Below are positions 6,150 to 10,537 of a DNA stretch of 12,568 bases, piece after piece (within the stretch, counting starts at the first letter, position 1; the number at the start of each line of letters is the position of its first letter). The stretch comes from Limulus polyphemus (taxonomy: Eukaryota). The translations under genes were made by a program, and so were the position numbers. Under the pieces are notes generated by a model, which worked only from the letters and a program-made list of their open reading frames with translations, did not search any database and was not told the origin of the DNA. The stretch covers positions 91,318 through 103,885 of the forward strand of contig NW_013668828.1 of NCBI RefSeq assembly GCF_000517525.1, written 5' to 3'.

Positions 6150-6256
6150 TTCCTGAGATTCAACAGGTTCCCTTTTACTCTTTATGCCTTTATTATAGGC
6201 ATTTGGAAATGTTGTAGCAAGTTTCTTTTTTCTATTTTTGCCTCGATTATATTTTG
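6150..6256 (-). CDS. Candidate coding exon (107 nt, 2 nt carried in, phase 0 out). Lys/Arg-rich peptide (A)KYNRGKNRKKKLATTFPNAYNKGIKSKREPVESQE, resembling a basic, possibly nuclear-localisation segment.
   Basis: Acceptor ttattttcttag|CAAAAT. Donor CAGGAA|GTGAGTAT (plus actcac 6144-6149). Only frame 3 is open (frames 1 and 2 hit TAA). The incoming phase matches the 1-nt overhang of the exon at 8507-8603. Confidence 0.5.
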
Positions 6257-7367
6257 CTAAGAAAATAAAGTAAGAACAGGAAAATCAGCCATATACATAT
6301 ATATCTATATATACTCTATTTTTTGTCTACTATCCAAACCATAGCATTTACACTCTTAAAGTTGGAATGCAACATAAAATATGTTTAATAATATCTAACA
6401 CATAACAAATATCTTTTCCTACTTGTAAACACAAAAACAAAGAATAAAGTTTCTAAAACTACATCAATTTTAAAATTTCATGGAATTATTATGTTCTATC
6501 ACTATAAACTTGTGTAAGTGTTAGTAACATAAATCATTTAATGATTACTAGAATGGTTCTTTTATAAGTACTATCTGTTGTTCATTAATACTAATACACA
6601 TATTTAAGACAATACTGGAATTCTTTGTTGTCTTTCAGAATTTGGAATTCTAATAGCAAAGTTAATTTTAAACAGTACCACATCTATTAATTCAAAATGT
6701 GCTGAGCTTTTCAACCAAAAAAATTATTCACTAAAGAATAAATGAATTATTTAAAAGACTGGTGCATGCAGAAGAAAAGAAACTTTTTATTAGTCAGTTC
6801 TTTCCACTTCTGAGAAAACTATTTTTAATGTTAATAAATTGCTCCTTAGACTAATTAGATTCTTACAAACATTTCTTCTTTAGATGATAGGATATTTGCA
6901 CAAAAATACACATTTGTACTTGAAAATAAGCTGTAGTTAGGCATGTCTACATAGCATTAACGAAAACTGTAATATTTTGTCAGAAATGCTACTGTTAGAT
7001 CTTCACAGAAAGTTATTCAGGTGAAAGCAAACTCTGTCTCATCTTATTTTCAGAAAAGATGTTTTAACTTACATATTTTTGTGTGTCCTGAGCAATAGTA
7101 TTACTGTAGTCAGAGAAAATCAAAAGTTATTATTCACTATTTTGAGTCATATCTGTTACCATGGAGGAAAAAAATATTAAAAATGTAAGTTTCAATTACA
7201 TGGAATAATCAAATAATGGACATGTTCATTGAATTATTTATCTTAACATTCTTTTAAAAAAAAAGACATTCCTAATTATTGGTGTGTACAGCAGAAAAAG
7301 AAATATGAAAGTTAACAGTTTCTTACACTGAAAACGTATTTCCGAGAGGTATTTACCTCCCTCACCC

Positions 7368-7573
7368 AAAGCTATCTCGATCCTGGACTGTCCTCTAAGC
7401 ATTGCTAAAATTTTTTCCTAACAGTACACCAGTCTTTTATACCTCATCAGTTTCGCACCATTTCAAATTATGTGACTACCCTCCACCAATCATGTTGCAC
7501 CCTCTATACTAGCACAGTTTACTCTAGTATAGTAGCTCCCTCTACTATACTAGAGTAATCCTCACTTTCGAAA
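7368..7573 (+). repeat. Left terminal inverted-repeat arm of the foldback element. It contains an extra local hairpin not present in the right arm.
   Basis: Direct comparison with the reverse complement of 8254-8454. The left arm carries an inserted segment tttactctagtatagtag that is absent from the right arm. Confidence 0.55.
7519..7558. repeat. Perfect 17-bp inverted repeat with a 6-nt spacer (tttactctagtatagtag ctccct ctactatactagagtaa), a hairpin-capable palindrome inside the left TIR arm.
   Basis: rc(7519-7535) equals 7542-7558 exactly. A third, partial copy ctctatactag lies at 7502-7512. Confidence 0.8.
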
Positions 7574-7999
7574 ACTGGCAGGTACAAACCAGAAACACTG
7601 GCATATCAGTGGGGATGAATGGCAGGTGAGTAGAGGTAAGTACCTATTGGAAATACATTTGCACTGTAAGAAAATGTTAACTTCCAAAATGATCTTACCT
7701 TCACTCACCCAAAGCTAGGGCCAGTAAAGATGTATCAATATTCAATCATGTGGAAAGCAACTGCACTGAAAGAATATGAAAAAAAAAGCACACCTGTGGG
7801 GTATAGCACTACTTCGGGAACAGGTATGCTCTTTACTCAGCAATTAACACAGAAATAAAAAGAGGGTGGAACTGAATTGGCAGGCACCAGTGCATTCAGA
7901 AAAGATATGTACAGCACCAAGTCAGTGGAAAAGTGTTATATAACCATGACTTGAAACAGCATGGCATTAACAAACATGGAAAGCCTAGTATGGAAGCAA

Positions 8000-8175
8000 C
8001 AATGGGCTTGTATAAGCATGTGCCAAGGGTAGTGCCTTGGTTTACATCAGAGTATGTCAAGTGCAATCCATCTGGGCAAAATATTCAGTGGATATGCCTT
8101 GTATAAGACATTGAGATCAACAAGTGCAATCCTACCAGGCAAAAAAACATCCAGGGGAATGTCTTGGATACATAG
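8000..8175 (+). repeat. Tandem array (about 3 units, ~62 bp period) inside the foldback element core.
   Basis: Units caagtgcaatccatctgggcaaaatattcagtggatatgccttgtataagacat (8058-8111) and caagtgcaatcctaccaggcaaaaaaacatccaggggaatgtcttggatacat (8121-8173), plus a degenerate unit at ~8004-8047 (gcttgtataagcatgtgccaagggtagtgccttggtttacat). Confidence 0.6.
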
Positions 8176-8253
8176 GATGAAGAAAAAAAAATGTTTGTAG
8201 TCTCATGGAGAGTGAGTTAAAACATACGTCTGTACACTAGAATGCCAATCGAG

Positions 8254-8454
8254 AAAGTGAAGATTACTCTAGAATAGTAGAGAGAGCTAGCTGCATCAGT
8301 ACAGAGGGCATAGTATGATTGGTGGAGGATAGTCACATAATCAGCATAGGTTCTGAAAAGATACAAAACTGATGGGGTATAAACAACTAATGTGCTGTTT
8401 AGCAAAAAAAATGTTAGCAATTCTTAGAGGGCATTCCAGGATCGAGATAGCTTT
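8254..8454 (-). repeat. Right terminal inverted-repeat arm of the foldback element.
   Basis: Its reverse complement aligns with 7368-7573 in several blocks of roughly 85% or higher identity. Confidence 0.55.
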
Positions 8455-8506
8455 AACTGATAGTAAGCAAGACAGTTTAGGAATATAAAAATTTTGGAAT
8501 TCTTAC

Positions 8507-8603
8507 CAAGTTGATACTGATCAAATTCTTGAAACTTTGCTTTCATGGCCTTTCTCAAACATGCTGGTAAAGATCCCAAGTTTATTCCTTCATCTTTCAA
8601 ACT
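8507..8603 (-). CDS. Candidate coding exon (97 nt, phase 0 in, 1 nt carried out). Peptide SLKDEGINLGSLPACLRKAMKAKFQEFDQYQL plus a trailing G.
   Basis: Acceptor attgattttttttag|AGTTTG (polypyrimidine tract plus AG). Donor CAACTTG|GTAAGA (plus cttacc 8502-8507). Only one frame is open. GC content is higher than the flanking intron. The phase connects to the next exon (G + CA = GCA). Confidence 0.6.
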
Positions 8604-8840
8604 CTAAAAAAAATCAATAAATCATAGAAGTCACGAAATGTTATTTGTCAAGCTAAATAAATTGCTGTAATATAAAATTATTTACCTTTTAGTCAGTTTC
8701 ATTTGGTGACTGACATAAATATGTTTCTTATTTATGGATTTTATTCTTGACAACATGATATCCTAGGGAGAAGTAATTGTTCATATCTAAATGTCACTGG
8801 ATCTATAAAAACAACAAATTTTTTAAAGACAAACTGTTAA

Positions 8841-9298
8841 CCCTCACACTGCGACTGGGACAAATGTTTCCCCATTGTCATTCAAAATTGCCATGCATGA
8901 TGTATGGTAGTAAAATGAGTTGGAAAGTATTTATTGACATTCCACCTAATGTTGATATATGGTTTCCCTCAATGTTTTCCACTCAGCCTTTCAGTAACCA
9001 ACAAGATGCCTAAGCAGAATGTATAACAACTGCATGCCAACCATGCCCACATCGCTAAAGCGGCAAGTAATAACCCTAATTATTATGTAAATATATTTAA
9101 TGTGCTTGACTCAGATAGCTTATAAGATAGTAAAAGTGAGTCAAGTGGTGTTCAAATGTGTGATGATGAAGACAAGAGGATGCTAGCTCTCCATCTAGTG
9201 ATGATAGTCAAGGTGATAAATCTGGACCGAGCAGGATGAAGATGAAGACATGCATTGATAATGGGAAACATACATTTGTTCCAGTCACAGTGTGAGGG
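8841..9298. mobile_element. MITE-like non-autonomous DNA transposon (458 bp) with ~45 bp imperfect terminal inverted repeats beginning CCCTCACACTG. Superfamily undetermined.
   Basis: Left end ccctcacactgcgactgggacaaatgtttccccattgtca...atgcatg versus rc of right end ccctcacactgtgactggaacaaatgtatgtttcccattatcaatgcatg. TTAA immediately precedes the left end (8837-8840), but there is no TTAA after the right end. The enclosed ORFs (8777..9013 +, 9208..9399 -) are AT-rich and presumably spurious. Confidence 0.55.
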
Positions 9299-9475
9299 AG
9301 TGGGAGCACTGGGAAGTATAAAGTCCCAGCTGCAGTGAATGGGTTAAATACAGTGACTGTTTTTAAATGTTTTTTTATTGGGAAAATGTGTACCAACACT
9401 TTAAAAATCTATCTAAAAAAGTATGATAAGTTTCATAAGACATTTTTACTGAAAGCAATCCAAGATATAGCTTAC

Positions 9476-9637
9476 CAAGTACAGCTCAGCAACTTCAATC
9501 CAGTCTGAAGGAAGCCTGACAGATGAACTGAAGTACTTCTTTAGAAAAGGCCTACAACTCTCTATGTATGCAGCATATGTTAATAAGAAGTTTGCAGTAG
9601 TACGAATGTTGAGTTCCTGTCGGGTATACAACGCTAC
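9476..9637 (-). CDS. Candidate coding exon (162 nt, 54 codons, phase 0/0). Peptide VALYTRQELNIRTTANFLLTYAAYIESCRPFLKKYFSSSVRLPSDWIEVAELYL.
   Basis: Minus-strand acceptor gattgttgtag|GTAGCG (AG at 9639-9638), immediately after an in-frame TAG. Donor TAC TTG|GTAAGC (plus cttacc 9471-9476). Overlaps the provided ORF 9446..9631, whose 'M' is a TTG codon. Phase is compatible with the exons upstream and downstream. Confidence 0.55.
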
Positions 9638-10402
9638 CTACAACAATCGTGGTCAGTTACCTTTTGAAAAATTGCAATAATCAAAGGATAACACAAAAAA
9701 TATTTTGATATCAGCTGAATTTTTGAAAACAAAGGAGGACACATGCTCAAACTTCTTTACTTTTCCAAAAGCAAGCTGATTAGTAAACATCATTAAAGCA
9801 CAAAACATTACAAGTAGGATTTACATTAAGCAGTATTTTGTAAAATCTGAAATATAAAAATAAGTTTCCAAAACAAATGTAACAATGAATAATATTGACT
9901 GGAGATATTTCCAATAATAACAACAAATTATCTGTTCATTACTGTTGATGATGGAACTTTGTCAAACTAATACTTAAGTATGTAAATTTTCTGAAGATTT
10001 TATTTATCAAAAACATTTAGAAACAAAAAATGTTAGAGAACTTTGATTAATTAAACATAAAATATGAAAATTATAATAAGTAATTCAAACTACAATATGT
10101 CAGCTGGGTGTTCCAAGATAACTGACAAAGAGAGGGGACTTTAATTAGACTACTGTTCCAGCATTCACTCAACAACAATAGTAAGACCAGTTTGAAATAT
10201 TTCAGGATATATTTGTTCATTGAAAATCTTGTTAAAATATGCAAAGTTATGACTATTGGTATTAAATTTTGTATGCTCTTTTTTTATTTAAAGTATATAA
10301 CATTTTACAATAATGTTCTTCTTTTGGTTTATGAATTCACTTGTCTCATTTGGTTATAACTGCTAGATGAATTAAATCTAAAAGTTACATTTTCTTTCTT
10401 AC

Positions 10403-10537
10403 CTTTAAAATGAATTCAGGGTCAAAAGAAGCCACAGCTGCAGTCTGAGACATAAGAACTTTTCTAGTTGTATCTGTAGATGTTCTAAAGTTTGGATTGT
10501 GGATAAGAGAGGTGCTCACAGTAGTTAGAAGTTTTAC
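10403..10537 (-). CDS. Candidate coding exon (135 nt, 45 codons, phase 0 in / 0 out) of a multi-exon minus-strand gene. Peptide VKLLTTVSTSLIHNPNFRTSTDTTRKVLMSQTAAVASFDPEFILK. Product unidentified.
   Basis: Minus-strand acceptor ttctttgcacag|GTA at 10539-10538. Minus-strand donor AAG|GTAAGA (plus cttacc 10397-10402). Frame is open across the exon. An in-frame ATG lies at 10453..10451 (MSQTAAVASFDPEFILK), but its Kozak context is weak (C at -3, T at +4) and the frame stays open upstream to a TAG at ~10556, so internal exon versus first coding exon is unresolved. Confidence 0.5.

Follow-up and report, generated by a model that had tools for sequence, protein, structure and literature searches.

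We analyzed a 12,568-nt stretch of the Limulus polyphemus genome (RefSeq assembly GCF_000517525.1, contig NW_013668828.1, positions 91,318 to 103,885), referred to below as the window. On its minus strand lie six exons, which we consider, with a probability of roughly 95%, to be an internal piece of the horseshoe-crab gene for telomerase protein component 1 (TEP1), the vault-associated TROVE protein. The features of the window, in the direction of transcription, are as follows.

10538..12568, minus strand: intron that precedes the first exon of the window; the exon before it lies outside the window
10403..10537, minus strand: TEP1 exon, the first in the window; 135 nt, phase 0/0; VKLLTTVSTSL...DPEFILK, start of the TROVE domain
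9476..9637, minus strand: TEP1 exon; 162 nt, phase 0/0; VALYTRQELNIRTTANFLL...SDWIEVAELYL, the most conserved TROVE block
8507..8603, minus strand: TEP1 exon; 97 nt, phase 0 in, 1 nt out; SLKDEGINLGSLPACLRKAMKAKFQEFDQYQL(A)
6150..6256, minus strand: TEP1 exon; 107 nt, the first 2 nt finish the split codon, 0 out; (A)KYNRGKNRKKKLATTFPNAYNKGIKSKREPVESQE
4336..4478, minus strand: TEP1 exon, overlooked in the initial annotation; 143 nt, phase 0 in, 2 nt out; NKAQTYTESNEMETEKKVTRCSFTLKQLIRLLHITQPVNHVMCLLGK(K)
2605..2762, minus strand: TEP1 exon, overlooked in the initial annotation; 158 nt, the first nt finishes the split codon, 1 nt out, donor GTGAGT; (K)YPEEPELFRRSGLPGVWEEERAGVRMKLPVPETWETQVSARGNNAEVWQELI
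1..2604, minus strand: beginning of the intron that follows; the next exon, KLPYMAMLRNLRN..., lies outside the window

The initial annotation, which was made from the letters alone, had proposed a gene of four exons. Re-reading and translation reproduced exactly its four minus-strand segments, their AG/GT boundaries, and their phases. Each segment has AG before it, GTAAG or GTGAGT after it, and a single open frame. The lengths of 135, 162, 97, and 107 nt make 501 nt and encode a 167-aa peptide identical to the one proposed, and the phases chain as described (0/0, 0/0, 0 in with 1 nt out, 2 nt in with 0 out). The extent of the gene had been underestimated. Two downstream coding blocks surfaced when homologues were compared with the window by tblastn, and their exons (4478-4336 and 2762-2605) were then read from the sequence. 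The six exons join in phase into 801 nt without stops or frameshifts, encoding 267 aa, and the gene runs past both ends of the window. A reader without tools can thus arrive at a correct model of several exons by following splice signals and phases; the limits of such reading are the two missed exons and a recognizable domain that was called unknown.

The product had been left unrecognized, with no family assignable by eye. Searches of the concatenated peptide, which the initial annotation had itself proposed, recovered both the TROVE domain and TEP1 homologues. In detail, the 167-aa peptide of the four exons matched Pfam TROVE (PF05731) at E=1.6e-39, and the 267-aa peptide of the six exons matched it at E=3.5e-73 (247.7 bits, cut-off 23; profile positions 24-297 of 442). 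All homologues with descriptive names were TEP1 (telomerase protein component 1, telomerase associated protein 1, or KEGG K11127), and the others carried only generic labels (TROVE domain-containing, hypothetical, uncharacterized). Word-index homologue searches gave only proteins of at most 468 aa and at most 63% identity and missed every full-length TEP1 (about 2300-2900 aa), the Tachypleus protein described below among them, so that the lack of a close match there is not evidence that the gene is unannotated. We also performed an exhaustive HMMER search of 1.84 billion representatives, a library in which closer cluster members are hidden behind their representative. The best representative was XP_076330930.1 (P0089), annotated as "telomerase protein component 1-like" of Tachypleus tridentatus (2281 aa; E=3.7e-152), and the next was a TEP1-like protein of Lytechinus with 59% identity.

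The 267-aa peptide aligned over its entire length (1-267) with residues 223-489 of XP_076330930.1 at 88% identity and without a gap. XP_076330930.1 consists of TROVE (220-623), DUF4062 (872-985), AAA_16/NPHP3_N (STAND ATPase), and WD40 propellers, which include the TEP1-specific Beta-prop_TEP1_2nd and TEP1_C. It has the same TEP1-typical TROVE motifs as the window peptide, DPEFILK, LYxRxxLNIR, RLPSDW, QLAKYN, FTLKQLI, and MKLPxPETWE, with a basic linker after QLAKYN. The window peptide also keeps all invariant TROVE columns of a 16-sequence alignment. The gene is therefore already known, since it is annotated in the sister genome, whether the window holds the routine orthologue or a duplicate of an annotated locus. 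TEP1 is an ancient and widespread gene, contrary to the earlier suggestion of a lineage-restricted or poorly characterized one. The family has been described since the late 1990s, and the identification has little weight as a discovery; its practical use is that the exon-intron structure of the TROVE part is now verified for a chelicerate TEP1.

The N-terminal 30-residue TEP1 repeats (PF05386) gave no Pfam match in the three minus-strand frames of 10500-12568; the upstream exons lie outside the window. This family was not among the 25 best of the 47 families matched by the Tachypleus protein, and the only homologues carrying it were P0066 (primate) and P0074 (an unnamed sequence). Vertebrate TEP1 carries these repeats at the N-terminus, as seen in these two sequences; the corresponding horseshoe-crab region is outside the window. 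Vertebrate sequences (for example, the sperm whale and primate fragments P0049 and P0066) share the TROVE blocks at 40-50% identity.

An AlphaFold2 model of the 267-aa peptide was all helical, with a mean predicted local distance difference test score (pLDDT) of 81.4 and a predicted TM-score (pTM) of 0.73. Residues 142-184 had pLDDT below 50, and the remainder formed a confident helix stack. On this model, the peptide is predicted to be an all-helical, HEAT-like repeat module broken by a disordered basic linker. The five best matches of a Foldseek search of the PDB were Ro60/TROVE structures of phage, human, Xenopus, and Deinococcus origin (1yvp, 9nen, 2nvo, 9l5y, 9kop), with query-normalized TM-scores (TMq) of 0.32-0.57.

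These structural matches, together with the common Pfam domain, are what speaks for Ro60 (TROVE2), the other eukaryotic TROVE protein and a binder of Y RNAs and misfolded RNAs. Ro60/TROVE2 and the bacterial or phage Ro proteins (Rsr) belong to the same fold class, the HEAT-like helical repeats of the TROVE ring, and binding of small structured RNAs is likely, by analogy, to be a mode of action shared with them. At the sequence level, the similarity of Ro60 to the window peptide is marginal: a single-sequence phmmer search of all PDB chains gave no Ro60 at E<=10, and a profile of 16 sequences reached it only at E=0.005-0.02 over about 70 residues. No named homologue is Ro60. Moreover, Ro60 is a TROVE and vWA protein of roughly 540 aa without NADase, STAND, or WD40 parts, whereas the product of the colinear Tachypleus gene is 2281 aa long and includes DUF4062, STAND, and WD40. 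On the phmmer null, the marginal profile match, the TEP1-named homologues, and the Tachypleus architecture, we rejected membership in Ro60, which we regard as extremely improbable. A topoisomerase match at E=0.056 in the PDB sequence search with the single peptide was spurious; the other PDB matches were marginal TROVE matches.

The basic, nuclear localization signal (NLS)-like stretch, which had been taken for the end of the peptide, is indeed basic, but it belongs to the interior of the TROVE domain, where it forms a linker predicted to be disordered, and is not a C-terminus. It spans residues of about 136-185 of the 267 aa, between the conserved QLAKYN and FTLKQLI motifs, and is encoded by exon 6256-6150, which supplies its basic part, and by the start of exon 4478-4336. 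Among 16 aligned TEP1 sequences, the linker varied in length from 15 to 85 residues, and 13 of them had at least seven K/R in its first 20 residues. Most of the orthologues compared, from a sequence of the EukProt protist collection to mammals, retain its basic composition and not its sequence. The linker might be a functional element, for example an RNA-contacting arm or an NLS switching TEP1 between vault and nuclear/telomerase pools, or else this copy might be an ohnologue retained from whole-genome duplication with a diverged role; we think it unlikely that either half of this joint reading applies.

We compared the window with the TEP1 locus of Tachypleus tridentatus (L003; 79 kb, GC content 29.4%). 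The two were colinear across the exons and most of the intron sequence, with 72-85% nucleotide identity in the aligned blocks, and interruptions came from two inverted blocks and a small number of gaps without alignment. All six exons had identical lengths and AG/GT boundaries in L003, at 87-94% nucleotide identity. Exon 10403..10537 corresponds to L003 7682-7816, with the same acceptor and donor (90.4%). Exon 9476..9637 corresponds to L003 8600-8761 (93.8%, boundaries unchanged), and exon 8507..8603, whose split codon G|CA rebuilds the conserved QLAKYN motif, to L003 9647-9743. The counterpart of exon 6150..6256 is L003 11338-11444 (89.7%, boundaries unchanged). Exon 4336..4478, with acceptor ...aaaattcag and the weak donor GTATAC, has its counterpart at L003 13025-13167, where the donor reads GTATAT. 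Exon 2605..2762 corresponds to L003 15452-15609 (93.7%). The four exons proposed at first are gapless and colinear with the RefSeq Tachypleus protein and are bounded by the same AG/GT there, so they do belong to a real spliced coding gene on the minus strand.

The window is not the sampled Tachypleus copy itself, and the two peptides differ by 31 amino acids. Between the six exons of the window and of Tachypleus, synonymous divergence (dS) was 0.23 and nonsynonymous divergence (dN) was 0.066, giving a dN/dS of 0.28. The coding sequence is under purifying selection. These values bear on the question of whether the window could hold a decaying duplicate of TEP1, that is, a pseudogene or non-functional ohnologue, in which case the 88% identity would separate paralogues rather than species. 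The history of horseshoe crabs includes whole-genome duplications. The one close relative that was retrieved stood at 88% and not near 100%, in a representative library that conceals closer cluster members. In addition, at least 1.6 kb of the upstream intron contains repeats and cannot be aligned, and the preceding exon is not at its Tachypleus position. Decay, however, is not what the coding sequence displays: 801 nt are free of stops and frameshifts, 12 of 12 splice dinucleotides are intact and match Tachypleus, dN/dS is 0.28 at a dS of 0.23, and no invariant TROVE column of the 16-sequence alignment is lost. The introns are colinear at 72-85%, near the synonymous divergence, which fits orthology or a still-constrained duplicate. 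We judge a decaying copy very unlikely.

No further TROVE exons were found in 1-2604, either by Pfam in the minus-strand frames or by tblastn with 88 homologues, the next exon, and the Tachypleus protein, nor in 10538-12568 by a Pfam scan of the three minus-strand frames and tblastn with the 88 homologues and the Tachypleus protein. The next exon, KLPYMAMLRNLRN..., was readily located in Patella, whale, and Tachypleus by tblastn with this motif-rich exon. The Tachypleus counterpart, at L003 19322, is separated from the donor by about 3.7 kb, and the intronic stretch L003 15397-18054 is matched by window 2822-107. The preceding Tachypleus exon, L003 6831-7127, is only about 0.55 kb upstream. 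Comparison with the Tachypleus locus explains why the flanking exons are missing from the window. The two loci also differ in intron length, in that intron 3 of the window is about 0.7 kb longer and its upstream intron holds at least 1.6 kb of unrelated DNA. Nothing corresponding to this DNA, window 10988-12568 (about 1.6 kb), is present at the orthologous position in L003, and only its short part 12440-12568 matched a repeat elsewhere in that locus, at L003 70542-70681. The DNA has the look of a lineage-specific insertion by which the preceding exon was moved out of the window. No hidden phase-0/phase-0 cassette exon was found in intron 4, and the gapless alignment to XP_076330930.1 ruled it out. 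A scan of the window with Rfam gathering thresholds and a tRNA scan gave no match, including no vault RNA.

Comparison of intron positions and phases with orthologues, another check proposed in the initial annotation, supported the model in Tachypleus, Patella, and whale. In the Patella vulgata locus (L001), the five comparable junctions matched in position and phase, among them a phase-1 intron that splits QL|AKYN and a phase-2 one in GK|KY. Of the five, four could also be read at the same place in the sperm whale locus (L002), from which intron 3, the QL|AKYN intron, was absent. At the level of single exons, the donor of exon 10403..10537, after EF[IV]LK, is common to the Patella and whale loci (the acceptor position was read by eye from the flanking sequence), the intron positions around exon 9476..9637 are as in both, and the phase-1 donor of exon 2605..2762 is the same in both. 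The phase-1 QL|AKYN intron (junction 8507/6256) occurs in the window, Tachypleus, and Patella and not in the sperm whale, which points either to a loss in the vertebrate lineage or to a gain in protostomes.

In the Patella locus (OW026350.2), limpet TEP1 appears to be divided between two annotated models, with genes at 3001-8910 and 9277-. The first, LOC130012329, is a 427-aa "uncharacterized" protein, and the second is a 2213-aa neighbor with the rest of TROVE, DUF4062, nSTAND1, and WD40. The two models are separated within the variable linker, and the split is probably an annotation artefact.

The four-exon model had been defended as unlikely to arise by chance in DNA of 28% GC. The GC content of the whole window is 30.6%, and local values range from 25% to 40%. 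We counted exon-like segments, defined as a pyrimidine-rich AG acceptor, at least 95 nt of open frame, and a GT[AG]AG donor, in the window and in 300 first-order Markov simulations. The window contained 13 such segments against 4.4 ± 3.1 in the simulations, with a null maximum of 16. The excess is modest, and the argument is weaker than had been held: splice motifs and open frames alone are only modestly above chance. Taken by themselves, an excess of about 3 standard deviations and a null maximum (16) above the observed count (13) would leave room for open frames and splice-like motifs that arose by chance in AT-rich DNA, with no gene at all. That account is refuted by the TROVE match (E=3.5e-73), the RefSeq TEP1 match (E=3.7e-152), and the conservation of the splice sites in three other genomes, and we give it practically no credence. 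The model is certain because of this homology and because every boundary is conserved in the three other genomes.

As to function, the protein had been guessed to be nuclear, a guess that is not supported; the literature places TEP1 chiefly in the vault particle (PMC7916137; bioRxiv 10.64898/2026.05.01.722283). The TROVE domain of mammalian TEP1 is an RNA binder, removal of the following vWA domain affects the interaction between TROVE and vault RNA, and TEP1-deleted mice have vaults without vault RNAs (PMC7916137; PMC3762200). TEP1 was first found with telomerase, yet it is dispensable for telomerase; its DUF4062 is an active NADase within vaults, which preprints of 2026 relate to bacterial immune effectors (bioRxiv 10.64898/2026.05.01.722283; 10.64898/2026.09.04.749371). 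By analogy with mammalian TEP1 and Ro60, TROVE and the following vWA domain of the horseshoe-crab protein would bind small RNAs of RNA polymerase III, such as vault RNA and telomerase RNA, and would hold vault RNA on vault particles. DUF4062 (a TIR-like NADase), a STAND NTPase, and WD40 propellers would follow downstream, outside the window. By homology, the window would encode about the first 60% of the RNA-binding ring. Given the NADase preprints, well-annotated invertebrate TEP1 genes may help comparative work.

Several points weigh against the assignment to TEP1. The window holds about 12% of the expected protein, and the downstream domains that distinguish TEP1 were seen only in the orthologous Tachypleus locus; DUF4062, STAND, and WD40 parts are also present in the neighboring gene model of Patella. 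The donor GTATAC of the fifth exon is non-consensus, though kept as GTATAT in Tachypleus, and the literature searched shows no test of RNA binding or vault association in a chelicerate.

The introns contain several repeats and rearrangements. Of the two blocks inverted relative to L003, window 5065-4609 (intron 4) corresponds to L003 12927-12481 and window 3830-3494 (intron 5) to L003 14165-14110 plus 14413-14167, both with colinear flanks. Either small inversions or independent insertions of transposons in opposite orientations may account for them. Intron 3 holds an element of about 1.09 kb (7368-8454) with long, gapped terminal inverted repeats, whose arms lie at about 7368-7569 and 8253-8454. 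The arms show 92% complementarity over their outermost 49 nt, the GC content of the element is 38-40% against about 27-32% around it, and there was no coding match. This element looks like the remnant of a foldback or miniature inverted-repeat transposable element (MITE)-like DNA transposon. Tachypleus has a shorter version of about 0.45 kb at the same place (L003 about 9786-10253), with an interior that differs by about 0.7 kb, and the shared position indicates that the element predates the split. In intron 2, a 27-nt inverted pair (8841-8867 and 9272-9298; 93% complementary, 404 nt apart) possibly represents the ends of a small non-autonomous transposon.

On the plus strand, an open reading frame at 12216-12530 encodes 104 aa (MTGDLEDYRRSRKLMKQEI...FFKYIKGKQ...IGPL...). 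It gave no word-index homologue, and its Pfam matches were below the cut-off only (DUF6991, MBB1). It may resemble the endonuclease-reverse transcriptase linker region of ORF2 of a non-long terminal repeat (non-LTR) retrotransposon. Finally, two copies of an interspersed repeat lie at 1343-1487 and 2156-2358, with a 62-nt core that is 81% identical. The repeat also matches four places in L003 (about 16859, 24870, 47086, and 67161) and is a dispersed, short interspersed nuclear element (SINE)-like family of horseshoe-crab genomes.

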